From: Candidatus Uhrbacteria bacterium
GTDB taxonomy: Bacteria; Patescibacteriota; Patescibacteriia; JACQRZ01
NCBI GenBank assembly: GCA_016206155.1
Contig: JACQSC010000001.1
Span: forward strand, 71,105-125,370
DNA: 54,266 nt
Direction of reading: 5' to 3'
Shown here: piece by piece, positions 2,820 to 40,546 of the stretch
How the letters are laid out: every line of letters starts with the position of its first letter
Numbering within the stretch: the first letter of the stretch is position 1
Translations under genes and position numbers: made by a program
Notes under the pieces: model-generated
The model's input: the letters and a program-made list of their open reading frames with translations, nothing else
The model's database searches: none
Told to the model about the DNA's origin: nothing

Positions 2820-3217
2820 GGAAGCAAAACGCAAAACAATTTGCCTCTGCGCTTCGAGCATTGACGCGGGGAAAGAAAAAAAGTGAAATAGACACAATCG
2901 TTCGCTCGGTTGTAGGGCGTTACGGCGTTACCGGACAGATGAAGTTTCTTGCTCGCGTCTGGCACCAACTCCACGATATTTTGAATAGTGAGAAGGGGGT
3001 GGCGCGCGTTGCGGTCCGCGTTCCATCCTGCGATAAAAAGCGCAATCGAGCGTTGACCGGACAAATTGCAAAACAGGTCGGTCGCGACAGTGAGATTTCC
3101 ATCACAGAAGACCCCTCGCTCATTGCCGGCGCTGTTGTGACAGTAGGTGATAAGCGTTACGACGGCAGCGTTAAGGCGCGAATACGGCAGTTGAGGAAAC
3201 ACCTTCAAAGGAATTAA
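2816..3217 (+). CDS. atpH: F0F1 ATP synthase subunit delta (OSCP), short form
   Basis: 133 aa with an ATGA overlap onto atpF. The C-terminal IAGAVVTVGDKRYDGSVKARIRQL matches the OSCP signature region. The stop TAA lies inside the first GAATTAA heptad. Confidence 0.85.
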   Translation: MRKQNAKQFASALRALTRGKKKSEIDTIVRSVVGRYGVTGQMKFLARVWHQLHDILNSEKGVARVAVRVPSCDKKRNRALTGQIAKQVGRDSEISITEDPSLIAGAVVTVGDKRYDGSVKARIRQLRKHLQRN

Positions 3218-3291
3218 GAATTATGAATTAAGAATTAAGCATGTTTAAACATCGTATCCTTGATTCTTAATTCGTAATTCTTTATTCTTCG
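3211..3291. repeat. heptad-array hairpin: (GAATTAA)x4, then (TTAATTC-type)x4
   Basis: gaattaagaattatgaattaagaattaagc ... ccttgattcttaattcgtaattctttattcttcg. It contains the atpH stop codon. Confidence 0.9.
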
Positions 3292-4872: not shown

Positions 4873-4942
4873 CTCGTAATCCGTAACTCGTAACTCGTAA
4901 AAAAATCATTACGGATTACGGATTACGGATTACGGATTACGA
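4873..4942. repeat. heptad-array hairpin: (CTCGTAA/TCCGTAA)x4, then (TTACGGA)x5
   Basis: ctcgtaatccgtaactcgtaactcgtaa aaaaatca ttacggattacggattacggattacggattacga. It starts 3 nt after the atpA stop and ends 3 nt before the atpG ATG. Confidence 0.9.
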
Positions 4943-4945: not shown

Positions 4946-5871
4946 ATGAAAGGAACGTTACAGATACGCCGCCAGATCCGCTCAATCGGAAATACCAAAA
5001 AGATGACAAAGGCGATGGAGCTGGTATCTGCCGCAAAGATGCGAAAAGCGATTGTGGCGGTACTTGCGACCCGTCCGTATGCGACCTTTGCTCAGGATGT
5101 TTTGCGGTTTCTTGCCTCGCGTACCGTCGATGCGTCACGTCATCCGTTGCTTGAGGTGCGTGCCTTGCGCAAAGCGGGGTTTATCGTCATCAGTACGAAC
5201 AGGGGGCTGTGTGGTAGCTTCAACGCAACCCTGGCATCAACCGTGCGCCACGAAGTGACGCGCGCGAAAGAAGATGGCGCATCTTCCAGCGAGGCGCTGA
5301 GCATGGGCAAACGAGCACGTGACATTCTCGCCCGATCCGGGTTAAAGATTAGCGCTGATTTTTTAAAAAAAGACATGACGACAAGCATCATTGATGTATT
5401 GCCGCTTGCGCACACCATTATCGAGCGGTACGGAAAGGGCAACCTTGATCGTGTGTATGTGGCGTATACCGACTATATTTCATCCGTTAAGCAAAAACCT
5501 GTGTGTAAGCAATTACTCCCGCTTGAATTGGGGTCTGGCTCAGTTTCGCAAAGCGAATCTGTGCCTGACCCCAATTCAGTGTTACCAAGCTCCGAGGGCA
5601 GACATAAAGAATTTGCCGGCACGCTGTTCGAACCATCAGAAACTCAAGTACTCTCCTATGTTATACCTCGTCTTCTCGAGGTTCAGCTGTATCAGGCGGT
5701 GCTGGAGTCAGAGGCATCGGAGCACAGCGCGCGCATGCTTGCCATGCACAATGCCTCTGAGGCCGCAACTGATATTCTCTCTGAGCTCCGATTGGCCTAT
5801 AACCAGATTCGCCAGGCGGGCATTACGCAGGAGATCGCTGAGATCTCGAGCGGCAGAGCCGCGCTGGAATA

Positions 5872-5872
<1 letters not shown>
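4946..5872 (+). CDS. atpG: F0F1 ATP synthase subunit gamma
   Basis: 308 aa. The N-terminal IRRQIRSIGNTKKMTKAMELVSAAKMRKA and the C-terminal LAYNQIRQAGITQEIAEISSG are both gamma hallmarks. Confidence 0.95.
5525..5577. repeat. 53-nt imperfect palindrome translated in frame inside atpG (copy A of a palindromic element family)
   Basis: GAATTGGGGTCTGGCTCAGTTTCGC AAA GCGAATCTGTGCCTGACCCCAATTC. 22 of 25 arm positions pair, with three T:T mismatches. It encodes ELGSGSVSQSESVPDPN. Confidence 0.85.
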
Positions 5873-7375
<1,503 letters not shown>

Positions 7376-7378
7376 AAA

Positions 7379-7437
7379 GGGTATAGGGGTTAGGGTATAG
7401 GGTATAGTTTCAAACCCTGAACCCTGAACCATGAACC
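7379..7437. repeat. heptad-array hairpin: (GGGTATA/GGGGTTA)x4, then (CCCTGAA-type)x3.5
   Basis: gggtataggggttagggtatagggtatag ttt c aaaccctgaaccctgaaccatgaacc. It starts 3 nt after the atpD stop, and its right arm runs into the first atpC ATG. Confidence 0.9.
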
Positions 7438-7874
7438 ATATGAGATTGAACATCATCACCCCGGAAAAGATCGTTTTCTCCGAAGATGTCGACCAAGTGA
7501 CCATCCCGACAATGGATGGGGAGATTACTGTGTTGCCGCATCACATTCCCTTGGTTGGATTATTGAAAGCAGGGGAGTTGATTATTAAAAAAGGAGACGA
7601 GATTATTCCGCTCGCGGTGTCTGGCGGCATGCTGCAAGTCCGCGCTGATGGCGTAACAATCCTTGCAGATACTGCGGAGCGCGTCGAGGAGATTGTTGAA
7701 GAGCGTGCGGAGGAAGCACGAAAAGCAGCGGAAAAGCTCATGGAAGAAAAACGCTTTGACGCAGAAGAATATGCTACGATTGCGGCAAAGATGGATCGCG
7801 AGCTCGCGCGCCTCAAGGTCGCGCGCAAATGGAGACACAAAGCGCATTCAGTACCAGGGTATAAGTCGGAATAA
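7431..7874 (+). CDS. atpC: F0F1 ATP synthase subunit epsilon
   Basis: 147 aa with an N-terminal beta-sandwich (ITPEKIVFSEDVDQVTIPTMDGEITVLPHHIPL) and C-terminal helices. The start may be the ATG at 7440 (MRLNIITPE). Confidence 0.9.
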   Translation: MNHMRLNIITPEKIVFSEDVDQVTIPTMDGEITVLPHHIPLVGLLKAGELIIKKGDEIIPLAVSGGMLQVRADGVTILADTAERVEEIVEERAEEARKAAEKLMEEKRFDAEEYATIAAKMDRELARLKVARKWRHKAHSVPGYKSE

Positions 7875-7887
7875 GAGAATTAGAATT

Positions 7888-7919
7888 AAAAAAATCGTTA
7901 GCACTCCCAGCGGTTTTTT
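7888..7919 (+). terminator. weak hairpin plus T-run after atpC, possible operon terminator
   Basis: AAAAAATCG ... CGGTTTTTT gives a 9-bp A/U-rich stem with a 12-13 nt loop and is followed by a T-run. Confidence 0.25.
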
Positions 7920-7935
7920 GATATAGTAGCTATAT

Positions 7936-8067
7936 ATGAAGCGAGTAATTATTGTTCATTGCTGGAGCGGGACGCCGGAGTACTGCTGGTATCCTGCCGT
8001 AAAAAACGAAGCCTCCTGCACAGACCTTCCAGATGCTGTTGAAGTTATTTTTGAAATGTCTCTATGA
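7936..8067 (+). pseudogene. 43-codon remnant resembling the N-terminus of a YdeN/RBBP9-type alpha/beta hydrolase
   Basis: The MKRVIIVHCWSGTPEYCWYPAVKNE pattern matches this family's starts, but the frame stops after 43 codons. Confidence 0.3.
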
Positions 8068-8249
8068 ACGCACATGATATGAAAAAAGAAATGTATGTCG
8101 ATCAAAAGCATGAGGAGCATATGTTTGATAGCATCACCGAAGATCTTCTGGCATCTTCAAGCCCAGTGTATCTGGCGAACATAAAAAAAGCGCGAAGCGA
8201 ACGGAAACGTTATTCTTTAAAAGAGGTAAGACGGATGCTGGACATCTAA
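8064..8249 (+). CDS. hypothetical 61-aa protein
   Basis: ORF with an ATGA overlap onto the upstream remnant and a charged C-terminus (IKKARSERKRYSLKEVRRML). No family was recognised. Confidence 0.35.
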   Translation: MNAHDMKKEMYVDQKHEEHMFDSITEDLLASSSPVYLANIKKARSERKRYSLKEVRRMLDI

Positions 8250-8289
8250 GGCATATTTGGCCTCTCTTTATAGCAGTTTATTTTTTCCC

Positions 8290-8318
8290 TTGACAGGTGA
8301 ACGATTGTTCACTAGGAT
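8290..8318 (+). promoter_or_regulatory. lexA promoter with embedded Cheo-type LexA (SOS) box
   Basis: TTGACA (8290-8295), 17 nt, TAGGAT (8313-8318). TGAACGATTGTTCA (8298-8311) fits GAAC-N4-GTTC and fills the spacer. Confidence 0.7.
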
Positions 8319-8394
8319 TGAAAGGTTAGAAGGTTGAAAGGTTAGAAGGAATATTCAAGATACTCCCAACCTGCCAACCTCTTAACCATCTAAC
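8317..8394. repeat. periodic-array hairpin (8-nt period: TGAAAGGT/TAGAAGGT x2, then CCAACCTG-type x3.5) in the lexA 5' leader
   Basis: gattgaaaggttagaaggttgaaaggttagaagg ... cccaacctgccaacctcttaaccatctaac. Confidence 0.85.
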
Positions 8395-8418: not shown

Positions 8419-8988
8419 ATGGATAAAGAAAAAACAGTGAAAAAGATCCAGCAGTTTTATCAAAAGAGAAAGCGCATGCCCAGCTTTTCAGAAGTTGCAG
8501 AACTCATTGGGTATAAGTCAAAGAACGCGGTCAGTAAGCTTGTGGATAAGTTAGTTGAGCGAGAACTTCTTTCAAAAGACGAGCAGGGAAGACTTTTGCC
8601 CGGGCGGCTCATGCGGGGGGTGCAGGTGTTGGGGACCGTAGCTGCGGGTTTTCCTTCACCGGCAGAAGAGGAGTTGTGCGATACGTTAAGCCTCGATGAA
8701 TGGCTCGTCCCGCACCGTGAAGCAACGTTTCTTTTGAAGGTGACCGGAGACTCCATGCAAGATGCGGGGATTGTTGATGGGGATATGGTGCTTGCGGAGC
8801 GAGGGTGTCAGCCGCGATCGGGTGATATCGTTATCGCCGAGATCGATCACGAGTGGACTATGAAATATTTTGTCCGCGATGGCGCGAAGGTCGTCCTTCG
8901 GCCAGGAAACACAAAGTATCCCGTCCTTGTTCCGCGATGCGAACTGAAAATCGCGGCCATTGTCCGCGGGGTGATTCGAAAGTATTAA
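8419..8988 (+). CDS. lexA: LexA repressor (S24 peptidase)
   Basis: N-terminal winged HTH, Ala-Gly cleavage site (VAAGFPSP), catalytic Ser in TGDSM and Lys in WTMKYF. Confidence 0.9.
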   Translation: MDKEKTVKKIQQFYQKRKRMPSFSEVAELIGYKSKNAVSKLVDKLVERELLSKDEQGRLLPGRLMRGVQVLGTVAAGFPSPAEEELCDTLSLDEWLVPHREATFLLKVTGDSMQDAGIVDGDMVLAERGCQPRSGDIVIAEIDHEWTMKYFVRDGAKVVLRPGNTKYPVLVPRCELKIAAIVRGVIRKY

Positions 8989-8999
8989 GTTTGCCATGT

Positions 9000-9338
9000 A
9001 TGGTCGTTGCCTTTTTTGATAAAAGTATAGAAGAATTTGTCGAGGGTTTTGAAAAACCAATCCGCTCTCGTATAGCGCGGACGATTATGCTTCTTGAACG
9101 GTTTGGAAATCGTATCACCATGCCTTACAGCAAAAATGTCGAACATAATTTATTTGAGTTGAGAACCATGGGAAATCCTGCTATACGGATATTTTATACA
9201 TTCCACGGTAGTTGTGCCGTTCTTTTGTGTGGGTATATCAAAAAATATCAGAAGATTCCGCGAAAGGAATTTTTACTTGCTATTAAGAAGCTACATCTCT
9301 TGACAGAATATAACGTAAACGTTATATTCAGAACATAA
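9000..9338 (+). CDS. higB: HigB/Gp49-type (RelE/ParE superfamily) toxin
   Basis: 112 aa from the ATG at 9000. The longer track ORF from 8853 overlaps lexA. The gene precedes an XRE antitoxin, which is the HigBA order. Confidence 0.7.
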   Translation: MVVAFFDKSIEEFVEGFEKPIRSRIARTIMLLERFGNRITMPYSKNVEHNLFELRTMGNPAIRIFYTFHGSCAVLLCGYIKKYQKIPRKEFLLAIKKLHLLTEYNVNVIFRT

Positions 9339-10330: not shown

Positions 10331-11611
10331 ATGACCCATGCAATCATTCATATCGATGGTGATGCATTCTTCGCCTCGTGCGAGCAGGCGCGAAATCCAG
10401 CACTCAAAGGCAGGCCGGTGATTACCGGCAAGGAGCGGGGGATTGCCTCGTCCATGAGCTATGAAGCAAAGCGTAAAGGTGTGACGCGCGGTATGCGATT
10501 GTTTGAGATTTTGCGCGCATGTCCCGATGCTGTGATTCTTCCTTCCGACTACGAACTGTACAGTATCATCTCACAGAGGTTTATGACGATTGTGCGGCGA
10601 TATACATCGGTTGTGGAAGAGTATGGCATCGATGAATGTTTTGCGGATTTGACCGGCATGGACAAGCCGCTGGGACTATCGTGCGAAGAAATTGGGCGCC
10701 GTATTCAGGCAGATCTCATACGCGAGCTTGATTGTTCTTTCTCCGTTGGTCTTGCTCCGACAAAGGTTTTGGCAAAGGTCGGGTCGAAGTGGGAGAAACC
10801 AAACGGGTTCACCGTTATTGAAGAACGCACAATCCCGCGATTTCTTAGAGAACTCCCGATCGAAAGCGTATGGGGCATCGGTGGTCAGACGGCAGGCCTT
10901 CTCCATCGCCACGGCATCTTTACCGCACTTGATTTTATGAATGCGCGTGAAGGATGGGTGCGCGATACGCTCACCAAGCCGTTTGTTGAGATTTGGCATG
11001 AGCTCAACGGCCAAGCCGCCTTAGCCATTGACTGTGAAGAAAAAAGGCCACAAGGGTCAATTCAAAAAGTAAAAACATTTACGCCGCCATCCGACAAGCG
11101 AGATCATATTTTTTCTCAACTTTCACGGAATATTGAAAACGCCTGTATTCGCGCGCGCAGGCATGGGTTGGCCGCACGAGAGGTGACGTTCTTTTTGCGG
11201 ACACAGGACTTTCGCCATTTTGGCGTACGGGCGCAGCTGTCAAGGGCAACGGCATTTCCCAATAAGATGATCAATGTTCTTGAGGGGATGATCGACGAGC
11301 TTTTTCATTCTCGCAACCTCTATCGCGCAACCGGCGTCGTGCTCTCAAAGCTTACCGACGAAGCATCGGCCCAGCTTGATCTCTTCGGCGATCACCTTGG
11401 GATTGAGAAAATGACGCGGCTCTACAATAGTGTCGATACCCTGGATCAAAAATTTGGCAAGCACACCGTCTTTGTTGGATCAAGTTTCAAGACAGAAAAT
11501 ACCCCTCAATTCGCCGGCGTTCGCGCAGACCGTCCCTGGCGCGAGGGGCATCTTTTGCAAGGCGAAACCATCCGTCAGCATATTGGTATTCCAATTTTTT
11601 CTCCGACTTAA
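10331..11611 (+). CDS. Y-family translesion DNA polymerase (UmuC/DinB-like)
   Basis: IHIDGDAFFASCEQ, SIDECFADLTG, and little-finger domain length (426 aa). No umuD partner was seen. Confidence 0.88.
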   Translation: MTHAIIHIDGDAFFASCEQARNPALKGRPVITGKERGIASSMSYEAKRKGVTRGMRLFEILRACPDAVILPSDYELYSIISQRFMTIVRRYTSVVEEYGIDECFADLTGMDKPLGLSCEEIGRRIQADLIRELDCSFSVGLAPTKVLAKVGSKWEKPNGFTVIEERTIPRFLRELPIESVWGIGGQTAGLLHRHGIFTALDFMNAREGWVRDTLTKPFVEIWHELNGQAALAIDCEEKRPQGSIQKVKTFTPPSDKRDHIFSQLSRNIENACIRARRHGLAAREVTFFLRTQDFRHFGVRAQLSRATAFPNKMINVLEGMIDELFHSRNLYRATGVVLSKLTDEASAQLDLFGDHLGIEKMTRLYNSVDTLDQKFGKHTVFVGSSFKTENTPQFAGVRADRPWREGHLLQGETIRQHIGIPIFSPT

Positions 11612-11671: not shown

Positions 11672-12001
11672 ATGCAGGACAACAATCAAAAAAATAGTGT
11701 TACAACCGACGAGATCATGAACTTTCTTGTCGATCATATGGTGACGAAAGAGGAACTTCGCTACGAAGTTGCTGAGATTAGAAAAGAAATGGCAACTAAG
11801 AGCGAGCTTGGTAAGCTTCGTTCTGACATGATTGATCATATGAATAAAAATACCCTTCAACTTGAGACCACATTCGGCACCATGATGCGAGCAGAAGATC
11901 GGAAAGTTGGAGCACTGATCAATCTTCTTGCAGATAAGAATGTAATTTCTTCGCAAGAGGCAGGAATGATTTTAAAACTGGAACCATTTCCGAGCATGTG
12001 A
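11672..12001 (+). CDS. hypothetical coiled-coil protein (about 109 aa)
   Basis: Same frame as track ORF 11645-12001, with the ATG at 11672 preferred (see promoter). The stop overlaps the helicase GTG start. Confidence 0.5.
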   Translation: MQDNNQKNSVTTDEIMNFLVDHMVTKEELRYEVAEIRKEMATKSELGKLRSDMIDHMNKNTLQLETTFGTMMRAEDRKVGALINLLADKNVISSQEAGMILKLEPFPSM

Positions 12002-15000
12002 GTGCTTCACAAGAGTTACTAAAAGATTTGAATCAAGAACAATCAACGGCCGTTACCCAAGGGGAGGGGCCGTTGTTGATTGTTGCTGGGGCGGGAACCG
12101 GAAAAACAACGGTCATCACGCGGAGAATCGCATGGCTCATTCTCTCCGGCAAGTGCAAACCCGATGAAGTCCTTGCGTTGACGTTCACGGAAAAGGCGGC
12201 TGGCGAGATGGAGGAGCGCGTTGACCGCCTCTTGCCATACGGGTATGTCAATTTGTGGATTTCGACATTCCATGCATTCTGTCAGCGTATCTTAGAGCGG
12301 CATGGGTTGGATATCGGCGTGCCGAATTCATTCAAGCTTCTTGACACGACGGCCAGCTGGCTCCTTGTCAGAAAGAATCTTGATCGTTTTGATCTTGATT
12401 ATTACCGTCCGCGCGGAAATCCCACTAAGTTCATTCACGCGCTCCTTCAGCACTTTTCTCGCGCGAAAGACGAAGGAATTCTGCCCGAGGACTATCTTCG
12501 GTATGCGCAAGATCAGAAACGGGGACAGTCACCGTTTCTGCAAGAAACGGTGACTGTCCCCGTTTCTGCCAAGCGATCCGAAGAAATTGCAAACGCGTAT
12601 CACATCTACCAGCAACTCCTCTTAGAAAACAATGCGCTTGATTTTGGCGACCTCCTCGTATACACCCGCGAGCTCTTTATGAACCGTCCCGCGATTCTTG
12701 AGCAGTACCGCGCACAATTTAAGTACATTCTTGTCGACGAGTTTCAAGATACCAACTGGATTCAATATACAATCGTGAATCTTCTTGCGACACCCGATGA
12801 CAATCTGACAGTGATGGCGGACGATGATCAGGCGATTTTTTTGTGGCGGGGCGCATCGTATCACAATATCCTTCAATTCAAAAAGGATTATCCGCAGAGC
12901 AGGGAGATATTTCTGACACAGAATTATCGTTCGTGCCAGAATATTCTTGATTGCGCCTATCAATTCATCCAGCACAATAATCCGGACCGCCTTGAATATC
13001 AGTTATCAGAGAAGGGCGGATTGTCAAAGCAACTTCGCGCGCAGCATGAGCGGCAGGGCAGTATTGAACACATTCATTGCACGACGCCCCAAGAGGAGGT
13101 CGCGCTTGTCTGTAAAAAAATTGCAGAGCTAAAAGAAAAAAATGTCGATCTCTGCTGGAGCGACATCGCGATTCTCGTACGCGCAAACGATACGGCAAAA
13201 CCCTTTTGTGAACATCTTCGTGATGCTCATATTCCCTATTATGTTGTTTCCGCTAAGGGATTGTACACAAAGCCCGTTATCATGGATATGCTTGCGTATT
13301 GCACCCTTCTTGTCCGACCGCACGACAGTCCGGCATTCTGGCGAGTGTTGACATGGCCTTTTTATACGTACGCGTCGGCAACCCTCATCGCGCTCTCTCA
13401 CTATGCGCATCGTTGCGGCATTTCGCTCTATGAGGCTTGCCAGAAGGTCGACGCGATCCCCGACATACGCCCCGAGGATCGGGTGGCGCTGAAAGGTCTG
13501 TGCGCTATCATTGAAAAGCATAGTATGCTTGCCAGAAGCGCGCGAGCGGCGGAAATTTTCCTCACTGTGGTACGCGATAGCGGATACCTTGCATATCTTA
13601 AGGATGGTGAAACAGAAGAAAAGCGCGAAGGATTAAAAGTTCTCGATGTATTTTATAAAAAAATTCGCGCATTGAGCCTTGACATGAATGATGCACGCTT
13701 AAAAGACATTCTCGATTGCGTGTCTCTTGAGCAAGAAGCAGGGGAGCAGGGAACGATGCCGCGCCGCGATGACGAGAGTCCTGACGCAGTGCATATCCTG
13801 ACATGCCACAGTGCGAAGGGTCTTGAATTTGACCATGTGTTCATCGTGAATATGGTTGACCGCAGGTTCCCGACAACGGAACGGCACGATGCGATTGAAC
13901 TTCCTGCGGAGCTACTGAAAGAAATAGTGCCGCAAGGGGATGCGCACCTTGAGGAGGAGCGGCGACTTTTTTATGTTGCGCTGACGCGGGCAAAACGGGG
14001 AGTGTATCTCACATCGTGTGAGGACACGGGCACGAACAGGAAGAAGAAACTTTCGCGGTTCTTGCATGAAATGGGGTTAAATGTGGGGTGGGGTCAGGCA
14101 CAGATTTTGCAGTCGCAAAAACTGAGCCAGACCCCAGCTGAGCCAGACCCCATTTCGACCGAAGAGCAAAAACAAAAATTCGGACCTGACACCAATTTTG
14201 CCGTTCTTCCCATTTCCCATGTTTTCAGCTACTCCCAGCTTGCCGCATTCCAAAAGTGCCCTTTGCAGTATAAATATGCGTTTGTCGTGAAGTTGCCGGT
14301 ATTTGGCAAGCCCGCTTTGAGCTTTGGACGAACTTTGCACCTCACGCTGCAAAAATTTTTTGAGCAATGCATTGAGTTGGAGAGAAGGGACCAGCAACAG
14401 CTGTTCAAGAGCGCGGAAAACCTGTATACTGACAATCATCAGGCGTTGCCATCCCTTGATACGTTGTTTGAGCTGTACGATCAGTGCTGGATCGATGAAT
14501 GGTTTTCCAGCAAGCGGCAAAAAGAGGAATACCGCCAACGCGGATGCGATATTCTCAAACGTCTGCATGAGGAAGTGTCGCGTACGCCCATGCGCACCAA
14601 GGCGCTTGAACGTGATTTTATCATCAGGTTTGGGGATTATCCCGATCAGATCACGATCAAAGGGCGCATGGATCGAGTCGATGAGTGCGATGACGGCACC
14701 GTTGAGATTATCGATTACAAGACGGGTACGCCAAAGGACAAGTTGACGCGCGAGGATAAGGAGCAGCTCCTTTACTATCAGATTGCGTCGCAAGAGGTAT
14801 TTGGCGAGCATCCCTCAAAGTTGACCTATTACTATCTTGATGACGGAAGCACGATTACGTTCATTGGGAGCGATGAGGATATCCAAAAACTGCGCAGTAA
14901 AGCAGCAACGATTGTTGGACAGATCAGGGAAAGCACATTTGAGGCGACACCTGGCTGGCACTGCAGATTTTGCGACTTCCGCGATATCTGTGAATATAGA

Positions 15001-15009
15001 GCCCACTAA
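11998..15009 (+). CDS. UvrD/PcrA-type SF1 helicase fused to a C-terminal PD-(D/E)XK, Cas4/AddB-like Fe-S nuclease domain
   Basis: Walker A AGAGTGKT, DEFQDTN, and QNYRS. In the C-terminal domain, the Cys in FQKCPLQYKY plus CRFCDFRDIC form a 4-Cys cluster pattern, alongside IIDYKTG (nuclease motif). GTG start. Confidence 0.9.
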   Translation: MSASQELLKDLNQEQSTAVTQGEGPLLIVAGAGTGKTTVITRRIAWLILSGKCKPDEVLALTFTEKAAGEMEERVDRLLPYGYVNLWISTFHAFCQRILERHGLDIGVPNSFKLLDTTASWLLVRKNLDRFDLDYYRPRGNPTKFIHALLQHFSRAKDEGILPEDYLRYAQDQKRGQSPFLQETVTVPVSAKRSEEIANAYHIYQQLLLENNALDFGDLLVYTRELFMNRPAILEQYRAQFKYILVDEFQDTNWIQYTIVNLLATPDDNLTVMADDDQAIFLWRGASYHNILQFKKDYPQSREIFLTQNYRSCQNILDCAYQFIQHNNPDRLEYQLSEKGGLSKQLRAQHERQGSIEHIHCTTPQEEVALVCKKIAELKEKNVDLCWSDIAILVRANDTAKPFCEHLRDAHIPYYVVSAKGLYTKPVIMDMLAYCTLLVRPHDSPAFWRVLTWPFYTYASATLIALSHYAHRCGISLYEACQKVDAIPDIRPEDRVALKGLCAIIEKHSMLARSARAAEIFLTVVRDSGYLAYLKDGETEEKREGLKVLDVFYKKIRALSLDMNDARLKDILDCVSLEQEAGEQGTMPRRDDESPDAVHILTCHSAKGLEFDHVFIVNMVDRRFPTTERHDAIELPAELLKEIVPQGDAHLEEERRLFYVALTRAKRGVYLTSCEDTGTNRKKKLSRFLHEMGLNVGWGQAQILQSQKLSQTPAEPDPISTEEQKQKFGPDTNFAVLPISHVFSYSQLAAFQKCPLQYKYAFVVKLPVFGKPALSFGRTLHLTLQKFFEQCIELERRDQQQLFKSAENLYTDNHQALPSLDTLFELYDQCWIDEWFSSKRQKEEYRQRGCDILKRLHEEVSRTPMRTKALERDFIIRFGDYPDQITIKGRMDRVDECDDGTVEIIDYKTGTPKDKLTREDKEQLLYYQIASQEVFGEHPSKLTYYYLDDGSTITFIGSDEDIQKLRSKAATIVGQIRESTFEATPGWHCRFCDFRDICEYRAH
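12515..12567. repeat. perfect 25-bp-stem/3-nt-loop palindrome translated in frame inside the helicase (copy B)
   Basis: AGAAACGGGGACAGTCACCGTTTCT GCA AGAAACGGTGACTGTCCCCGTTTCT. It encodes KRGQSPFLQETVTVPVS. Confidence 0.9.
14085..14151. repeat. palindromic element translated in frame inside the helicase (copy C; copy A in inverse orientation) with a 14-nt tail duplication
   Basis: GGGGTCAGGCACAGATTTTGC AGTC GCAAAAACTGAGCCAGACCCC (14090-14135) has three A:A mismatches. CTGAGCCAGACCCC is repeated at 14138-14151. Confidence 0.85.
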
Positions 15010-15807: not shown

Positions 15808-16190
15808 CACTTACTCGCTATCTTGTTCTCATGGCGTTTGCGACGGCCCTGTGCTGGGCGGCATGGACAACCGTCGTTGGGGCGGTCAATCCTTTTGATA
15901 CCGACATTGTCGGCTATTTTCTTTTTTATTCCAGCTTCTCCCTTGCGCTTGCCGGCACCTTTGCGCTTCTGGGGCTCTTGTTTCGCACGCTTCTGCTCAA
16001 GCAGGAGCTCATGTTTCAGAAGGTTGCCATTTCCTTTCGTCAGGGCATTTTTTTTGCTATTCTGATAGATGGGTTCCTTATCTTACAGGGCATGAGACTG
16101 CTCACATGGTATAACGTAGCGTTTTTGATTGTCGGATTAACAATAGCGGAGTTCTTCGTCATTTCACGCAAACCGCAAAGACGAAGATAG
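15804..16190 (+). CDS. hypothetical 4-TM membrane protein
   Basis: 128 aa, hydrophobic, with an ATGA overlap onto the upstream gene. Confidence 0.6.
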   Translation: MTLTRYLVLMAFATALCWAAWTTVVGAVNPFDTDIVGYFLFYSSFSLALAGTFALLGLLFRTLLLKQELMFQKVAISFRQGIFFAILIDGFLILQGMRLLTWYNVAFLIVGLTIAEFFVISRKPQRRR

Positions 16191-16270
16191 GGTGCAGGGT
16201 AGAGGGTACAGGGTATAGAAAAACCCTAACCCATAAACCCTAACCCCTAACCCCTAACCCCTAAACCCTA
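16190..16270. repeat. heptad-array hairpin: (GGGTNNA)x4, then a C-tract array (CCCTAA/CCCCTAA/CCCTAAA, 7 tracts)
   Basis: gggtgcagggtagagggtacagggtatag aa aaaccctaacccataaaccctaacccctaacccctaacccctaaacccta. It overlaps the upstream TAG stop by 1 nt. Confidence 0.9.
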
Positions 16271-18267: not shown

Positions 18268-18825
18268 ATGATTGTTTTTATAGATGAATCAGGAGTTCAT
18301 AAGACAGATGGGCATTCGTGCTTTTCCCTTGTTTATGTGACTACAGACAACGCAGAATTTTTGGAACATTCAATTATTGAAATTGAGCGGCAAAATCGTA
18401 TGTCAGTATTCCATTGGACAGATCAACCCTGGAAGCTGAGAAGCGTTTTTTTGCAGGCCGTAGCGAAGCTTCCATTCACAGCGAAGGTCGCTCTTTTTAG
18501 AAACCCAATCATAGAAACTAAAGCACTGGAGTGGGCGCTAAGGCACGTGCTTGTTGAGAAGAATTTTCGAGCCATCATTCTTGACGGAAAGAAGCCAAAA
18601 TGGGTTGAACGTCAGTTGAAGAAAGTGTTGCGCGACAATGGTATATCAGTAAAGAAACTTAAAACCGTTCGGCAGGAATCCTCTGCGGGGGTACGCCTTG
18701 CCGACGCTATTGCAGGACTGAGTCGAACATATTTTGACGATCCTTGTGGGAGGGCGCAGCCGTTATGGAGATGCATTGAATATAAAATAACCACCCAGCT
18801 TGTGGGTGGTCAGACAGATAGGTAA
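18268..18825 (+). CDS. DUF3800 family protein
   Basis: N-terminal MIVFIDESG hallmark. 185 aa. Confidence 0.7.
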   Translation: MIVFIDESGVHKTDGHSCFSLVYVTTDNAEFLEHSIIEIERQNRMSVFHWTDQPWKLRSVFLQAVAKLPFTAKVALFRNPIIETKALEWALRHVLVEKNFRAIILDGKKPKWVERQLKKVLRDNGISVKKLKTVRQESSAGVRLADAIAGLSRTYFDDPCGRAQPLWRCIEYKITTQLVGGQTDR

Positions 18826-20416: not shown

Positions 20417-20421
20417 TTCGA

Positions 20422-20456
20422 GGGTATAGGGTATAGGATAAAGGGTATAGGGATAG
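20422..20456. repeat. orphan heptad array (GGGTATA-type x5), no inverted partner
   Basis: gggtatagggtataggataaagggtatagggatag. It starts 5 nt after the pseudopilin stop and ends 1 nt before the GT2 ATG. Confidence 0.85.
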
Positions 20457-21525: not shown

Positions 21526-22658
21526 CAATTATTAGTCCCGTGTTTCCGCCATATCGGAGCGGACAAGGTTCTGTTGCGTATGAAAATGCGCGCATGGCGT
21601 CGCAGGCCGGTATTGAGACAGCGGTGTATACTCCCTGGTATCAAAAACTTCGGACCCAAACACCTCATCAGGAGCGCACGGACGGATTTACCATCCAACG
21701 TCTGCGGCCATTCTTTTCCTATGGCAATGCCGCATGTCTTGTGCAGCTTTTTTGGAAATTGCGATCAGCGCAAACGATTCATCTTCACTATCCCGCACTC
21801 GGCATGGAATTGCCGGTGTTGTTCTGGTCTCTTCTTGGAAAGCGGCTCATTGTAACCTATCACATGGATCTTGTTGGAAAGGGACGGTGTATGCAGGCGT
21901 TCTTTCGTGCGTACTCCGCGCTTTTTCTTCCACTCATTCTTAGCAAGGCCGCAGTACTATTTGTCACCTCCTCTGATTACGCCGAACAATCGTTGCTCCT
22001 GCGTCCGTTTTATAAGAACCTACGAAAAAAAATCATTGAACTGCCCAATAGCGTGGATACGAATATATTCTCGCCCATGGCCCCCGCTCCGATGATTGGG
22101 GAACAACCAATGAATGATTATATTCTTTTTGTCGGTGCGCTTGATGCCGCCCACTATTCAAAAGGCGTGGCCGTACTTCTTGAAGCATGCGCCCGCCTTA
22201 CTGGGTCGTATACCCTTGTGCTTATCGGAGACGGGGACATGCGCGCTCTCTATGAACAGCAGGCGCATGATAGGGGTATTTCTAATCACGTTCTCTTTAT
22301 CGGATCATGCGCGCACGACGATCTGCCGCGTTGGTATGCCCATGCGCGATGCCTTGTACTTCCTTCAACAGATTCGACCGAGGCCTTTGGTATTGTTATT
22401 ATTGAAGCGGGGGCAAGCGGGGTTCCTTCAATTGCAACACGCATTCCCGGCGTGCGGAGTGTTGTCCAAGAGGGGGAAACGGGCTTTCTTGTCGCGCCAA
22501 AAAATGCCATCGAGCTTGCGGAGAAGATACAATTCATACTTTCGCATCCTGACCGTGCACGTTCCATGGGCCACGCAGCACAACGGCGCGTGAATGAGCG
22601 CTACGCCTATGATGCGGTGGGACGAATCTATGTACGCGCCATTACCGGCTGTATGTGA
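21492..22658 (+). CDS. GT-B glycosyltransferase (family 4/1)
   Basis: E-x7-E region EAFGIVIIEAGASGVPSIAT...GETGFLV. The start may be the ATG at 21504. Confidence 0.85.
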   Translation: MVLDMDTAHHLTIISPVFPPYRSGQGSVAYENARMASQAGIETAVYTPWYQKLRTQTPHQERTDGFTIQRLRPFFSYGNAACLVQLFWKLRSAQTIHLHYPALGMELPVLFWSLLGKRLIVTYHMDLVGKGRCMQAFFRAYSALFLPLILSKAAVLFVTSSDYAEQSLLLRPFYKNLRKKIIELPNSVDTNIFSPMAPAPMIGEQPMNDYILFVGALDAAHYSKGVAVLLEACARLTGSYTLVLIGDGDMRALYEQQAHDRGISNHVLFIGSCAHDDLPRWYAHARCLVLPSTDSTEAFGIVIIEAGASGVPSIATRIPGVRSVVQEGETGFLVAPKNAIELAEKIQFILSHPDRARSMGHAAQRRVNERYAYDAVGRIYVRAITGCM

Positions 22659-24756
22659 ATACAACAGCCTTTTCGCTATCAATTTCACGCCATTCGTCAG
22701 CGGTTGCTTTTCCGTCGCGTACGATGATAGGAAAACGGAATTCGTAGTCACGGACCACGAAATAGATTCGATCAACACCGACGATATCCATTGCCCGCGC
22801 CGCCGTTTCTCGCGATGGCGCACGCAGCATCGCGTAGTATTGTTCCGCAAGCGGTGATCCGCTTGGTACAGGATAATAAAAAACCTCACCATAGGCGGGA
22901 ACATTAAAGTAGCGCGCAAAGCCAAACTCGCGGATTGCGGCAGATGCCACAACTTGGTTTGAGAGGACGGCATAATCTCGCCCTCCGGCATCAGCATCAA
23001 TGGCATGAACCGCGTTAATGTCAGTCTGGGAAAGCGTGTAGGCATGAGAGGGGACATAGACATCGTTGCGGGGATAGGAAAGATATAGCCCGGCGGTGAG
23101 CAGTCCTGCAAGCCCGAGCAGTGTAACAAGGCGTATTATTGGAGTGCCATCGCGTATTCGCGAAAGGAGCGTGTCAAGGGTAATTGCGGCAAGTGGGAGT
23201 AGAAAAAGCGCGGCAGCCTCGAAGAGACGCTTTGCATAGTCCTGCTGTTCAAAACCGGCAATCGAATCAATGCGCAGCAGAGAGCCGGTTAAGATACCAG
23301 TGATTGCAATAAAGAGCGCTGAAAAAAGGCATGCCCGGAAAAATGGCTGAGATCGGATCTCAGCCATTTTGGCGAGGATGATGCCGATGAGAGCGAGTAT
23401 TAGAAGGACAAGGTGACCATGATAATGAGCGGCGTATGTAGCGTCGAGGAGCGGGGAAAAGCGTGTTTGAAGCGTGCCTTCAAGCCGTATGATCTGTATA
23501 AGATCGTGAATCGTGGGCAGAGAAAGTGAGAGATGAAACTGCGGTGAGATGAACGCGTTTGCAATAAAGGCGAGAGGTATACTGACTGCGCCCAGCACAA
23601 ACACTCCAGCAGTCATGAGGTGCCGTCGAGCAATGGATGTTGCAAGTATCGCGAGAAAAAAGAGAAGGGGAATACCGGCAAGCGGGTGGAGCATGAGCGT
23701 AAAGAGCGCAAGAGCTCCAACAAGGATCCAGTGGCGGCGATTACGTGTTTGAGCGGCAAACCCACTCGACAACAGGGTAAGAATTGTGGTACCATAAGCC
23801 AGACCCCACGGCGTCGTCATCACGAGGTGCGGAAAGGGGATGATAAAAAAGCAGAGCGCGACGAGGAGCGGATTTTTTACATAGCGTGTGAGCGCCGTGA
23901 CAAGCAGTACCGGTAAAGAAAGTCCGATCACGATCAAGGTGAGCGGCTGATGAACAGACGCAACAGAAAGATCAAAGATTCGCGCAAAAAATGGAATAAC
24001 GGCATATTGGGCAAGATAATAGAATGTTTTTGGCAAAACAGATCCGTGTTCGAGAACCAGTTTTTCCGCGGCGTGATGAATAATCGGATCAAAGCCGAAC
24101 GAAAGCGGAAAGCGTATGAGGGCGACGGAGAGTGAGGTTGTTGTGTGAAGAATGAGGAGTAAGAGCGAGAGCGCAGATGGTATGCCAATCCAAAGAAGGA
24201 CGACCAAAAGAAATGAGGAAAAAAAGAACAAGACAAACATGATTGGCCCCACACCGTCCCAAGGTCCGAGTACCGCGTCTGTTGTTTGCAGGAAATAAAG
24301 ACCAGCAAGAAATGCTATGATGCAAAGGACGTACAGCGAGGAAAACAGAAGCGTATGCGGCCGCAGCGGTAAGGATGGCTGAGGTGAAGAGGGTTCCAAT
24401 GCGGTATGATTGCCAAGACGTGCTGAAAGAAGCGTTGCGGCAAGCACAAGCCAGAGGAGAAGAATGACAATCGGAAGCGAGAGGTCAAAGAAAAAATAAA
24501 TAATGCCGCCAATGCCGCCAATAAAAGAAACCAGTGCCAGAGGAGCGCACAGCAATGCGCGCACCCAGGAAATGCCTGTGCAATTGCGAACAATGAGAGC
24601 GCCAGTTCCCAAAAAATATACCACCGCAACACCGCGCATGATCCCTGTTCCGGTCGCGTCAAAAATGAGTCCGCCAGTGATTGTCACGGCACAGAGTCCG
24701 AGAAGAGAGATGAGAATCTTCATATGATGAGCTTTCCATCCTTTTGTGATCGTCAT
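22642..24756 (-). CDS. large polytopic membrane protein with a C-terminal extracytoplasmic domain (GT-C-like glycan transferase/polymerase is a guess)
   Basis: 704 aa with more than 12 predicted TM helices. It converges on GT4 with a 17-nt overlap. An alternative start lies at 24723 (MKILISLL). Confidence 0.75.
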   Translation of the reverse strand: MTITKGWKAHHMKILISLLGLCAVTITGGLIFDATGTGIMRGVAVVYFLGTGALIVRNCTGISWVRALLCAPLALVSFIGGIGGIIYFFFDLSLPIVILLLWLVLAATLLSARLGNHTALEPSSPQPSLPLRPHTLLFSSLYVLCIIAFLAGLYFLQTTDAVLGPWDGVGPIMFVLFFFSSFLLVVLLWIGIPSALSLLLLILHTTTSLSVALIRFPLSFGFDPIIHHAAEKLVLEHGSVLPKTFYYLAQYAVIPFFARIFDLSVASVHQPLTLIVIGLSLPVLLVTALTRYVKNPLLVALCFFIIPFPHLVMTTPWGLAYGTTILTLLSSGFAAQTRNRRHWILVGALALFTLMLHPLAGIPLLFFLAILATSIARRHLMTAGVFVLGAVSIPLAFIANAFISPQFHLSLSLPTIHDLIQIIRLEGTLQTRFSPLLDATYAAHYHGHLVLLILALIGIILAKMAEIRSQPFFRACLFSALFIAITGILTGSLLRIDSIAGFEQQDYAKRLFEAAALFLLPLAAITLDTLLSRIRDGTPIIRLVTLLGLAGLLTAGLYLSYPRNDVYVPSHAYTLSQTDINAVHAIDADAGGRDYAVLSNQVVASAAIREFGFARYFNVPAYGEVFYYPVPSGSPLAEQYYAMLRAPSRETAARAMDIVGVDRIYFVVRDYEFRFPIIVRDGKATADEWREIDSEKAVVFTYSR

Positions 24757-27695: not shown

Positions 27696-29110
27696 AAATT
27701 ACTAAAAAATCAAAAAAAGAGAATCCGTCGCGAATGATCTCAGCTGAATTTGGCGTCTATCCCGTGGTTGTTCTCGTGGGGCGCGTGAACGTCGGCAAGT
27801 CAACACTCTTCAATACGCTACTTGAACAACGTAAAGCAGTGACATCTGCAGTACCGGGGACAACGCGTGATGTGAACCATGGATTGTGCACATGGCGGGG
27901 CGCCACCTTTATTCTGGTTGATACGGGAGGATTTGCGGGCGGGAGCACAACAGAGATAGAGAAGAAAACCGCAGAGCATGCGCGGCGCATGATCAGTAGG
28001 GCAGATATTGTGCTCTTTATGACCGATCGCCGCGCAGGCTTGAATCCCGACGACCGGCGGTTTGTTCGTCTTATACGCACACTGACTCAGGCGCCGTTGG
28101 TGCTTACGGTTAACAAGGCAGAACACAAGAGTCCCACGGAAGCAGACGAGTGGAGTGAATGGCATAAGCTCGGGTTGGGGGAGCCACAGTATATTTCAGC
28201 GATGAACGGACGGGGGACCGGTGATCTTCTTGACTACGTTGTAAGGCTGCTTCCTGAAAAAAAGAAGGAGCAGAAAAAGGAGCAGTCTTCGCGCGAAGAG
28301 GTGCGCGTCGCTATCGTCGGTCGGACAAATGTTGGCAAATCATCTATTCTGAATCGTCTTCTCGGCGAGGAGCGGGTGATTGTCAGTCCTCAGGCGCACA
28401 CGACGCGGGAGCCCCACGATACGCTATTCGAATATGACGGTATACCTCTTCGCATCATTGATACCGTTGGCATGCGTAAAAAGTCACGAATTTCCTCCCG
28501 CATGGATCGGGAAGGCCTTGAGCGCAGCATCGTTGCGATTGAACAAGCCGACATCGTGCTGCTCATTCTCGAGAGCATCGTGAGTCCCTCAAAGCAGGAG
28601 AGCCGTCTGGTTGGCATCGCGCAAGAACGAGGGGCGGGATTGATGATTATCGTGAACAAATGGGACTTGATTTCGGAAAAGACAACAAAAACCCCCCAGG
28701 CATATGAAGAGTTTTTTCGGCAGTATTTCAAAGGCGCGCTCTGGGCTCCGGTAATGTTTGTCTCAGCATCATCCGGACAACGTGTATCGCGGATTCTCGA
28801 GGCTGTGGGGCTCTGCATTGAGAACAGGGGGCGCATTATCGCGCAAGAAGACCTGGATACGTTCCTTGCCAAAGTCATCGCGCACCAGCAGCCCCAATGG
28901 CAACGCGGGAAGAAGAAGCCCGCTATTTATCGATTTCGCCAGACAACAACCAATCCACCAACCTTTGCGCTAGACGTCAATGAGCGAAATAGTATCAGTT
29001 ATGCGTATTTGCGCTATCTGGAGAATCGTCTTCGTGACGTGTATGGATTTCAGGGTACGCCGATTCGGATCCATACGGAAGAAAGAGGGCGCTTAACTCG
29101 TAATCCGTAA
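27692..29110 (+). CDS. der: ribosome-biogenesis GTPase Der (EngA)
   Basis: Two G domains (GRVNVGKSTL; GRTNVGKSSI) plus a KH-like C-terminus. The stop TAA lies inside a heptad array. Confidence 0.93.
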   Translation: MKITKKSKKENPSRMISAEFGVYPVVVLVGRVNVGKSTLFNTLLEQRKAVTSAVPGTTRDVNHGLCTWRGATFILVDTGGFAGGSTTEIEKKTAEHARRMISRADIVLFMTDRRAGLNPDDRRFVRLIRTLTQAPLVLTVNKAEHKSPTEADEWSEWHKLGLGEPQYISAMNGRGTGDLLDYVVRLLPEKKKEQKKEQSSREEVRVAIVGRTNVGKSSILNRLLGEERVIVSPQAHTTREPHDTLFEYDGIPLRIIDTVGMRKKSRISSRMDREGLERSIVAIEQADIVLLILESIVSPSKQESRLVGIAQERGAGLMIIVNKWDLISEKTTKTPQAYEEFFRQYFKGALWAPVMFVSASSGQRVSRILEAVGLCIENRGRIIAQEDLDTFLAKVIAHQQPQWQRGKKKPAIYRFRQTTTNPPTFALDVNERNSISYAYLRYLENRLRDVYGFQGTPIRIHTEERGRLTRNP

Positions 29111-29124
29111 CTCGTAACTCGTAC
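29097..29124. repeat. orphan heptad array CTCGTAA-TCCGTAA-CTCGTAA-CTCGTAC, 27/28 identical to the left arm at 4873
   Basis: It contains the der stop codon and ends 1 nt before the pth ATG. No TTACGGA partner arm is present. Confidence 0.85.
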
Positions 29125-33728: not shown

Positions 33729-33749
33729 CTCGTAACTCGTAACTCGAAG
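33718..33749. repeat. orphan heptad array (CTCGTAA)x3 plus CTCGAAG
   Basis: ctaactcgtaactcgtaactcgtaactcgaag. It contains the topA stop codon. Confidence 0.85.
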
Positions 33750-33796
33750 TCAATACCGCCTTTTTTCATCCACTCATTCTTTGTCATCCCGCAGCA

Positions 33797-33848
33797 GGAA
33801 ATGGTGTCAGGAATAGTTTTTGCAGAAACTATTCCTGACGCCATTTCC
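33797..33848. terminator. 52-nt palindrome between convergent topA and vapC (copy D, distantly related to copies A-C), a likely bidirectional terminator-like hairpin
   Basis: GGAAATGGTGTCAGGAATAGTTT ttgcag AAACTATTCCTGACGCCATTTCC, an approximately 23-bp stem. GTCAGGAATAGTTTTTGC compares with GTCAGGCACAGATTTTGC in copy C. Confidence 0.6.
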
Positions 33849-33869
33849 ACACAAAGTAAATACCTTGCG

Positions 33870-34250
33870 TTACCACGATTTTGCGAGTTTTTTATCAAAT
33901 GTCGCGAAATGCTTTGCGCCATGCGTTCGCGCGTATACAATGTTATACGCATCTTCAAGCTCAATCGTCCTTGCTCGAAACATTCGGAGTGCTTCTTCTA
34001 AGATTGGACGTTCCTCAATATCGATAAATTCCAAATTGAGAATATCTTCCAGTAAGGAAAGGAGTTCTGTTTTTCTTTTGTTGTAGAAGCTTGATAGAAC
34101 CCAGGATACTTCAAAGAAAACAATAACGGAAGTAAAAAGCTTGACTTTTGCTTGCGCGGCGGAATCAAAAAGAGACCGAGCGATTTTGTGGTGTGTCTCG
34201 ACATCGGCAATAAGAAGGCGCAGGAAGTAATTCGTATCGACAAACGTCAT
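33870..34250 (-). CDS. vapC: PIN-domain toxin VapC
   Basis: MTFVDTNYFLR (first acidic residue) and further PIN acidic positions. 126 aa, with a 4-nt overlap onto the antitoxin gene. Confidence 0.85.
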   Translation of the reverse strand: MTFVDTNYFLRLLIADVETHHKIARSLFDSAAQAKVKLFTSVIVFFEVSWVLSSFYNKRKTELLSLLEDILNLEFIDIEERPILEEALRMFRARTIELEDAYNIVYARTHGAKHFATFDKKLAKSW

Positions 34251-34501
34251 GCGCGTTTTTTGCTGAAATGTTCGTCCTTTGCCTTGCGGATCATTCCATC
34301 AATTGACATACCGTGGAATCGTCTCGGGAGCTTCACCGATCCGGCAATCCGGCTGATAATTTTTTCAGCGGGTTCAACAATCATTTTATTGCCGCGATTG
34401 GTGACAATAACTTTTTCACCTTCGCGAAAGCCAACCTTCCGGTAGACCTCTACCGGAATCGTGAATTGTCGTTTGTCGGTGATGGTTGCTGTTTGAGCCA
34501 T
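34247..34501 (-). CDS. vapB: AbrB/SpoVT-type antitoxin VapB
   Basis: KRQFTIPVEVYRKVGFREGEKVIV swapped-hairpin motif. It lies upstream of vapC. Confidence 0.8.
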   Translation of the reverse strand: MAQTATITDKRQFTIPVEVYRKVGFREGEKVIVTNRGNKMIVEPAEKIISRIAGSVKLPRRFHGMSIDGMIRKAKDEHFSKKRA

Positions 34502-35792: not shown

Positions 35793-35800
35793 ACGTTATA

Positions 35801-35885
35801 GAATTAAGAATCAAGAATTAAGAATCAAGCAGAATTGGATCCAGACGGCTCCATTCGTCATTCTTGATTCGTAATTCTTAATTCT
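35801..35885. repeat. heptad-array hairpin: (GAATTAA/GAATCAA)x4, then (TTGATTC/TTAATTC-type)x4
   Basis: gaattaagaatcaagaattaagaatcaagc ... tcgtcattcttgattcgtaattcttaattct. It lies between rubredoxin and peroxiredoxin and overlaps the rubredoxin stop. Confidence 0.9.
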
Positions 35886-40530: not shown

Positions 40531-40546
40531 CCCCGTTAGAAATTTT

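Follow-up and report, generated by a model that had tools for sequence, protein, structure and literature searches.

The locus considered here raises the question of how a nearly perfect palindrome came to be translated within a gene for a core subunit of the ATP synthase. The gene is atpG, and it lies on a 54,266-nucleotide stretch of Candidatus Uhrbacteria DNA (contig JACQSC010000001.1), which is referred to at its full length as the window. The answer that we consider likely is that the palindrome is a non-autonomous miniature derivative of an element of the RAYT/TIRYT type, i.e., one built around a Y1 (HUH tyrosine) transposase. The gene and its palindrome are as follows:

4946-5872, plus strand: atpG, F1 gamma subunit, 308 amino acids, intact (Pfam ATP-synt, full-length, 272 bits).
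5523-5579, plus strand: canonical palindromic element, in frame in atpG (left arm 5525-5549, loop 5550-5552, right arm 5553-5577).

The palindrome proper, 5525-5577, reads GAATTGGGGTCTGGCTCAGTTTCGC-AAA-GCGAATCTGTGCCTGACCCCAATTC, which is a 25+3+25 nucleotide (nt) arrangement that is translated as ELGSGSVSQSESVPDPNS, residues 194-211 of AtpG. An initial annotation, which was made from the letters alone, had described an in-frame palindrome at this place; its coordinates, the pairing of 22 of the 25 arm positions and the three mismatches, all T:T on the coding strand, were all confirmed. When folded as single-stranded DNA, the element formed one hairpin with three single mismatches and a free energy of -24.7 kcal/mol (z = -10.6 against 200 shuffles). 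Moreover, 12 hairpins with a score of at least 11 were found in the window versus none in ten first-order Markov simulations of it. In the AlphaFold2 model of AtpG (mean predicted local distance difference test score, pLDDT, 85), residues 196-216 scored below 50 and were placed as a low-confidence coil between the strand at 183-191 and the helix at 219-225. The inserted peptide is predicted by this model to be a disordered loop that adds about 18 residues after the last beta strand and before the C-terminal helix, which is where the earlier reading had located the segment. Chloroplast gamma subunits carry their regulatory insertion at the same position, after the LLPL motif. Peptides spanning LLPLELGSGSVSQSESVPDPNSVLPSSEGR, if detected, would show that the atpG segment is translated. 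The closest named relatives of AtpG, and likewise of the helicase described below, belong to Candidatus Uhrbacteria (Patescibacteria, Candidate Phyla Radiation, CPR), and the exact AtpG is also present on a Logan contig (L001, run SRR12113428).

The atpG copy is not isolated. A covariance model, R1, which was built from 41 copies and run without filters, recognised four sites in the window, with 5523-5579 scoring best (60.5 bits, E = 5e-15), as well as 15 further copies in 12 loci of two other Uhrbacteria genomes (approximately 90 kilobases, the loci having been picked because they have a copy). Further copies therefore exist beyond the two that had been noticed at first. Those in the window, together with the gene that holds most of them, are:

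11998-15009, plus strand: gene for a 1003-amino-acid protein with UvrD-helicase, UvrD_C and PDDEXK_1 nuclease domains; two full elements plus extra arms.
14083-14136 (R1 match 14083-14142), plus strand: second canonical copy, opposite orientation, palindrome at 14090-14135 (R1 50 bits, E = 4e-12).
14138-14151, plus strand: extra tandem right arm CTGAGCCAGACCCC, with a 16-nt period relative to 14122-14135.
14176-14203 (core 14182-14193), minus strand: solitary half arm of the GGTGTCAGG subtype, AATTGGTGTCAGGTCCGAATTT on the minus strand.
12514-12568, plus strand: variant palindrome of the GGGGACAG subtype, perfect 26-nt arms (R1 27.4 bits, E = 1e-5).
33796-33849, plus strand: variant palindrome of the GGTGTCAGG subtype (R1 29.1 bits, E = 3e-6; fold z = -11.5).

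In the helicase copy at 14090-14135, the arms are exchanged relative to atpG (GGGGTCAGGCACAGATTTTGC...GCAAAAACTGAGCCAGACCCC) and its mismatches are therefore A:A at the same stem positions, so that the two sites carry the same element in inverted form, as had been proposed. This copy lies in frame in the linker of the UvrD/PD-(D/E)XK helicase-nuclease, has the A:A form on the coding strand and encodes WGQAQILQSQKLSQTP. The extra arm at 14138-14151, which adds to the earlier description, gives it a layout of one left arm and two right arms. The solitary half arm is translated as FGPDTNF in the helicase linker, and the same subtype flanks the Y1 gene of a locus (L123) that is discussed below. 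The variant palindrome at 12514-12568 is also in frame and encodes QKRGQSPFLQETVTVPVS, and its core matches AAGAAAAGGGGACAGGCTACTT, a terminal repeat of Y1 genes. Within the window, the family is thus dispersed as head-to-head dimers at 5523, 14083, 12514 and 33796 and as solitary arms at 14138-14151 and 14182-14193. As a separate observation on this gene, some orthologues of the helicase-nuclease (P0145, P0146 and P0200) are 1357-1470 amino acids long with Hint/intein Pfam domains.

The family extends well beyond Uhrbacteria. A scan of one genome per species with the pattern GGGTCWGRCWCA-N6-30-TGWGYCWGACCC returned at least 113 stretches, which belonged to Planctomycetota (many genomes with many copies each), to Nitrospirales and to two Uhrbacteria genomes. 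Nearly all of the matches listed share the asymmetric arm pair GGGTCAGGCACA...TGAGCCAGACCC, which forms a 12-bp outer stem; its positions 6 and 10 are mismatched, as A:A when read on one strand and as T:T on the complementary one. That the outer stem does not vary was partly built into the search pattern; the near-exclusive preference for one of the four allowed A/T combinations was not imposed in this way. The recurrence of this arm pair with its two mismatches at more than 100 loci supports the earlier claim of a discrete, oriented family. The inner stem and the loop are lineage-specific, and the 5' flank is purine-rich (GAAG, AAAC, AAAT, GGAG) and followed by G. In Uhrbacteria, the flanks also pair (GAAAATG...CATTTTC), which extends the palindrome to approximately 54 nt. 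Hairpin clusters were found in the loci L062, L072, L018 and L073, and the arm subtype of the window sites 33796 and 14182-14193 was also found in L081 and around the L123 Y1 gene. Searches of Rfam with the window and seven loci at the gathering threshold, and with 5450-5650 at a permissive E-value, revealed no matching family, just tRNAs and meaningless matches to microRNA hairpins. No matches were obtained when viral contigs were scanned with the asymmetric pattern, and there is therefore no sign of a phage origin. On one Planctomycetota chromosome, CP070790.1, the hairpin was observed in the middle of an approximately 105-nt repeat unit that has 20-nt terminal inverted repeats of its own, ATACGGATTCCACTTCAAAC, i.e., a nested palindrome (loci L010, L014, L025, L030, L058, L064, L065, L076, L088, L093 and L113).

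The placement of the copies relative to genes differed among the lineages. Among the 19 copies from the Uhrbacteria loci and the window, 12 are in frame in open reading frames (ORFs) with Pfam support, which bears out the suggestion that the element tolerates insertion into coding sequence. The host genes encode AtpG, the helicase (two), RadA (two), RecG, RsmA/KsgA, a TsaB-like protein (two), an M32 carboxypeptidase, a phosphoribosyltransferase and a GT2-Wzy_C fusion. The intragenic copies in Uhrbacteria occur in both orientations and in several phases, the reading frames are open through every copy, and direct reading of the element's sequence showed that it contains a stop codon in only two of its six frames. 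Within the window, the copy at 33796-33849 occupies the intergenic space that separates topA (ending at 33728) from a convergent minus-strand ORF of 126 amino acids (ending at 33870). In Nitrospirales, 19 of 20 copies are intergenic, and most of these are found 4-50 nt past a stop codon; in them, the sense strand has the U:U form and a pyrimidine-rich tail follows the hairpin, an arrangement that resembles a terminator. For Planctomycetota, 16 out of 62 copies are in ORFs that are supported by third-position G+C. A reading of the hairpin as similar to signal recognition particle RNA or to a bulge-helix-bulge intron was considered and dropped, given that intragenic copies are found in both orientations and that the element does not interrupt the reading frames.

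Comparison of orthologues showed where the element is present and where it is not. The AtpG relatives P0002-P0005 (73-82% identity) carry the palindrome at the same place, and P0006 and P0008 (72-76%) and all of the more distant orthologues, below about 72%, are without it. The distant orthologues also lack the peptide, whose presence in distant lineages without palindromic DNA would, according to the initial annotation, have spoken against its reading. A clean absence of about 17 amino acids, which the initial annotation had anticipated, was not found because the length of the linker varies anyway. At the helicase site 12514-12568, P0123, P0124 and P0126 have a canonical element, while P0122, P0125, P0127 and every more distant orthologue have nothing. 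P0126 reads ELGSGSVSQGESVPDPNS at this site, and its DNA (L121, GCA_030688725.1) is GAATTGGGGTCTGGCTCAGTTTCGCAGGGCGAATCTGTGCCTGACCCCAATTCG, which differs from the atpG copy in the window by 3 nt. That one and the same variant occupies atpG in one genome and the helicase gene in another argues strongly for movement. Among six copies (AtpG orthologues plus one helicase copy), six stem pairs showed compensatory double changes and one T:T position was unpaired in all six sequences compared, and in L003 one T:T mismatch was lost through a pairing-restoring change. The orthologous series L002-L005 thus shows a coding palindrome that keeps its pairing while it diverges.

A candidate enzyme was found in the neighbourhood of a relative of the helicase gene. 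The locus L123, which was fetched solely as the locus of the helicase orthologue P0123, is syntenic with the window over 12-24 kb and contains a gene (7129-7854) for a 241-amino-acid Y1_Tnp protein, with a pilin gene on one side and a prepilin-peptidase gene on the other. A perfect inverted repeat of 22 nt, AAATCGGTGTCAGGTCTGGTTT (7064-7085 and 7805-7826), brackets the Y1 gene. Where L123 has the Y1 gene and an ORF of 160 amino acids (7129-8333), the window holds a DUF3800 gene (18268-18825), and we therefore regard this position as a variable slot. The protein has the motifs NHIH, WQ and YIELNPVRAG and matches Pfam Y1_Tnp with 60 bits; among NCBIfam models it fits NF047646 best (REP-associated tyrosine transposase, RAYT; E = 3.4e-21, 75.7 bits), and it scores 17.8 bits against the IS200 model NF033573, for which the cut-off is 55. 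Its named relatives include entries from Uhrbacteria, Magasanikbacteria and Nitrospirota that are annotated just as 'transposase'.

The link between arms and enzyme was also found from the side of the hairpins. A tblastn search with the Y1 protein revealed homologues in L062, L072 and L018, and L073 has the C-terminal part of a further one; these four are among approximately 65 Planctomycetota loci for which the hairpin pattern was the sole criterion of retrieval. The homologues have the motifs NHFH, WQ and YVERNP and a conserved tail, and their genes contain two to four family hairpins in frame directly after the Y1 core, with the ORF continuing into the tail. Additionally, a half arm, AAAGGGGTCAGGCTCC, lies about 40-55 nt 5' of their start codons. 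When the ORFs near the hairpins were clustered, no large recurrent family emerged, and a cluster from four loci was the Y1 gene. The in-frame hairpins are located as follows:

L072, 5299-5410: in-frame hairpins in a Planctomycetota Y1 gene.
L062, 4126-4331: the same.
L018, 3642-3782: the same.
L073, 1-241: the same.

Among 36 metagenomic Y1 relatives (36-49% identity), 24 are flanked by inverted repeats of 12-24 nt, one copy being located 40-60 nt 5' of the start and the other at or past the 3' end. Nearly all of these repeats have the core GG[G/T]G[T/A]CA, and those that recur are AAAAGGGGTCAGAACTATTT, AAGAAAAGGGGACAGGCTACTT, AAATTGGTGTCAGTTCATTTTTC and AAAATGGTGTCAACTCTATTTTC. The window variants (GGGGACAG at 12514 and GGTGTCAG at 33796) therefore correspond to other arm subtypes. 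The tandem duplication of the right arm at 14122-14151 of the window has counterparts at the right ends of the Y1 genes in L062, L018, L138, L147, L166 and L205, and it may be a footprint of end processing. Three of these duplications were delimited:

L062, 4312-4345: duplicated right arms.
L018, 3765-3792: duplicated right arms.
L205, 4716-4750: duplicated right arms.

Hairpin pairs about 0.5 kb apart (L074, L105) were also considered as transposon ends and rejected: ordinary genes, not transposases, lie between them. The resemblance to REP/RAYT systems that had been noted from the hairpins alone has thus gained a RAYT-like Y1 gene flanked by arms of the family, both in the syntenic relative and in Planctomycetota. 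The annotation had also advised a search of the genome for an IS200/RAYT-like Y1 gene; RAYT-like genes were found in L123 and the Planctomycetota loci, and tblastn with the Y1 protein found none in the window.

Based on these observations, we propose that a full element would consist of a Y1 gene of roughly 230-240 codons between inverted arms of 20-24 nt with the core GG[G/T]G[T/A]CAG, and that the miniature form would be a left and a right arm joined head to head over a short loop. Since there are two fixed positions at which the ends differ, the fold of one strand has T:T mismatches and that of the other A:A. Enzymes of the IS200/IS605 and RAYT groups act on single-strand hairpins. By analogy with them, the mismatches may mark strand and end for a strand-specific, single-strand enzyme, and the Y1 enzyme would presumably act on the hairpin form and thereby mobilise the copies in trans. 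In Uhrbacteria, whose genomes are densely coding, the surviving copies would mostly be those that landed in frame in tolerant loops where the peptide is harmless, and the AtpG peptide would accordingly be expected to be neutral. Correction of one arm by the other through template switching, acting on older copies, would be consistent with the perfect pairing at 12514 and 33796 and with the mismatch that L003 has lost.

Several points weigh against this proposal. Transposition itself has not been observed, and neither a target-site duplication nor a clean empty site could be defined at the atpG and helicase sites, where filled and empty versions are too diverged to define the junctions. No Y1 gene was found in the 54-kb window by tblastn with the Y1 protein or by a domain search of some of its ORFs, its small ORFs showing no transposase domain, and the organism may therefore lack one. 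The arms around the L123 Y1 gene are of the GGTGTCAGGTC subtype and are not exactly those of the atpG copy, and the NF047646 score of its product (75.7) is just below the curated cut-off of 80. In Nitrospirota, a Y1 homologue (L205, of the pair L205/L206) is without a canonical hairpin and has just a duplicated right arm of the GGTGTCAG type, and no Y1 gene was seen by tblastn in the 20 Nitrospirales hairpin loci. Finally, the GTAG/GTGG foot of REPs is absent from approximately 100 oriented copies among the matches listed, and we have therefore filed the element with TIRtron-type repeats and not with classical REPs.

The rival that survives best, although we rate it as improbable, is that the hairpin is a host-level signal (a terminator, an mRNA-stabilising or processing hairpin, or a DNA site) that is kept by selection, its spread being secondary. 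The Nitrospirales copies, 19 of 20 intergenic and terminator-like in layout, speak for it, as do the compensatory changes that keep the pairing among orthologues and the position of the window copy 33796-33849 between convergent genes. However, the copies within Uhrbacteria genes occur in both orientations and several phases, and therefore no single RNA strand is preserved; a terminator within atpG, radA or recG would do harm, and orthologues manage without the element. The terminator-like copies are better read as a secondary use of intergenic copies, in line with what is discussed for REPs in the sections of Di Nocera et al. (2013, BMC Genomics 14:522, PMC3733652) drawn on here.

It is rather less probable again that the palindromes were formed or kept locally, by template switching (quasipalindrome correction) or gene conversion, with no dedicated transposase and with the Y1 genes as mere targets. 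Consistent with this, pairing is perfect in the divergent copies at 12514 and 33796, L003 lost its mismatch through a change that restored pairing and the duplicated right arms resemble products of slippage. Moreover, hairpins are present as in-frame inserts within Planctomycetota Y1 genes, which are therefore indeed targets. However, local processes cannot put the same 53-nt variant in atpG and in the helicase gene of another genome, nor can they explain identical stems in three phyla, and in 24 of 36 loci the arms stand on both sides of the Y1 gene with regular spacing, which is the layout of element ends and not of random targets. Template switching probably acts as well, as a maintenance process. 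The last rival, a chimeric palindrome or contig produced by assembly or binning, has a negligible chance of being correct: palindromes and repeats can misassemble and many of the related contigs are short, but the same atpG sequence stands on the independent Logan contig L001, six other samples yielded orthologous copies and NCBI assemblies additional ones, and the reading frames stay open through every copy.

The window contains further features beside the family. The first of those listed here is a possible decayed half arm, and the second row refers to a repeat system that is unrelated to the palindromes:

23796-23807, minus strand: possible decayed half arm GGGGTCTGGCTT, low confidence, in an ORF for a 704-amino-acid membrane protein (model match only at E = 1.1).
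1823-1889, 2192-2273, 3211-3289, 4873-4941, 5871-5966, 7379-7437, 16189-16270, 20421-20456, 29094-29123, 33719-33746 and 35800-35885: heptamer arrays.

The same membrane-protein ORF (22642-24756, minus strand) contains in frame a perfect 31-nt palindrome at 23340-23370, AAAATGGCTGAGATC-G-GATCTCAGCCATTTT, which was not recognised by R1. At each place, two arrays of three to six tandem heptamers face each other and are reverse-complementary, forming hairpins; they occupy most of the intergenic spacers of the atp operon and several others, and are of the types AGGGTAT, GAATTAA and CTCGTAA. Upstream (5') of the helicase gene lie genes for an S24 (LexA-like) peptidase and a DinB polymerase; a Gp49-like ORF is also present (listed positions 8419-8988, 8853-9338 and 10331-11611). 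Beside the intergenic palindrome, two small overlapping minus-strand ORFs (33870-34501; 126 and 84 amino acids) look by eye like a toxin-antitoxin pair. Over the last 14 kb of the window (40000-54266), the G+C content drops from about 0.50 to about 0.38.

If the proposal is correct, reduced and gene-dense CPR genomes carry miniature mobile palindromes that persist mainly in essential genes (atpG, radA, recG and ksgA), which has consequences for the annotation of CPR genomes, for protein alignment and for the interpretation of lineage-specific 'insertions'. Peptides derived from the element (…GSGS…VPDP… and …WGQAQ…LSQTP…) can cause false similarity between unrelated proteins. The two-mismatch hairpin that is common to three phyla is also a concrete substrate for the biochemistry of a poorly understood class of Y1 enzymes. 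A broader idea, which is possible but on balance doubtful, is that the GGGTCAGGCACA/TGAGCCAGACCC stem is the cognate substrate of the most widespread RAYT class, TnpA_Y1 subclass 2.1, that it was kept nearly unaltered, or exchanged, among Planctomycetota, Nitrospirales and CPR, and that in CPR it regularly supplies essential proteins with in-frame loop insertions. Were this true, the class would gain a testable DNA substrate and the stem would be a marker of gene flow between CPR cells and the other phyla that carry it.

Among known systems, the closest are the TIRtrons, which are described in the relevant sections of Di Nocera et al. (PMC3733652) as Y1 genes flanked by terminal repeats that form dispersed families, some of the repeats sharing the motif GGGGWSAS. 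Similarly, in L123 and in the 24 of 36 metagenomic relatives, a Y1/HUH gene is bracketed at a regular distance by long inverted repeats, and the repeats of the present family are dispersed as singles, dimers and clusters. The arms of the atpG and helicase copies (GGGGTCAG or GGGGTCTG) and of the 12514 variant (GGGGACAG) fit the motif, whereas the GGTGTCAG subtype (33796 and L123) is off by one base. In contrast to the TIRtrons as presented in those sections, which list no Patescibacteria, the family is found in this phylum, and neither a head-to-head dimer with two fixed mismatches in three phyla nor a predominance of in-frame copies appears in the text concerned.

With the REP/REPIN-RAYT systems of Proteobacteria, the family shares short imperfect palindromes that often occur as inverted doublets and are linked to the low-copy Y1 gene that they flank, as well as HuH and Y---NP motifs, a best match, just below the cut-off, to NF047646 and many copies just downstream of genes. 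Beyond the missing foot, it differs in its longer stems of 20-25 bp. Within the RAYTs, the L123 enzyme resembles, by its motifs only (NHIH, WQ and YIELNP) and with its 241 amino acids, TnpA_Y1 subclass 2.1 (group 1 of Bertels), which is characterised in the part of Quentin et al. (2018, PMC6006769) used here by NH[VYF]H, W[EQ], YIELNP, a median of 238 amino acids and a conserved C-terminal tail. That part lists subclass 2.1 as being without identifiable flanking REP-like structures and presents in-frame insertion of a REP in the transposase gene as unique to subclass 2.4; as an observation apart, the subclass 2.1-like Y1 genes of Planctomycetota carry in-frame hairpins of the family. With IS200/IS605, the likeness lies in a Y1 HUH transposase and in subterminal hairpins that differ between left and right and serve strand-specific, single-strand transposition, and these elements served as our model for the proposed mechanism. 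However, their TnpA has about 150 amino acids and a Y---Q motif, while the L123 protein has 241, Y---NP and a C-terminal tail, and no tnpB is present.

The in-frame placement also has precedents. Di Nocera et al. (PMC3733652), in the sections considered, report REPs inside genes, many of them for DNA repair and including UvrD/REP helicases, to which they add 20-30 residues; such intragenic REPs were found in Opitutus terrae, Thauera and others, sometimes twice per gene. The same sections count the Rickettsia palindromic elements (RPE) RPE-4 and RPE-6 among this set, as CGTC-tagged repeats with no dedicated transposase, and describe RPE-1 as a longer palindromic insertion. In all of these cases, as in Uhrbacteria, in-frame palindromes lie in unrelated housekeeping genes, notably for DNA repair, that are left intact. 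The likeness to Rickettsia palindromic elements that the initial annotation had drawn is sound in this respect, i.e., as a mode of working; the lineage differs, the sequence probably does too, and a candidate Y1 partner exists here. Its further statement that such elements had no description in this kind of genome holds for Patescibacteria, for which we found none in the literature, a full-text search for the literal arm sequence giving primer matches only; it has to be set beside the fact that in-frame palindromic insertions and Y1 transposases flanked by terminal inverted repeats have already been described in other bacteria, as the cited sections of PMC3733652 document. What appears to be new is the host phylum, the high share of in-frame copies in essential genes and the two-mismatch stem that is conserved across three phyla.

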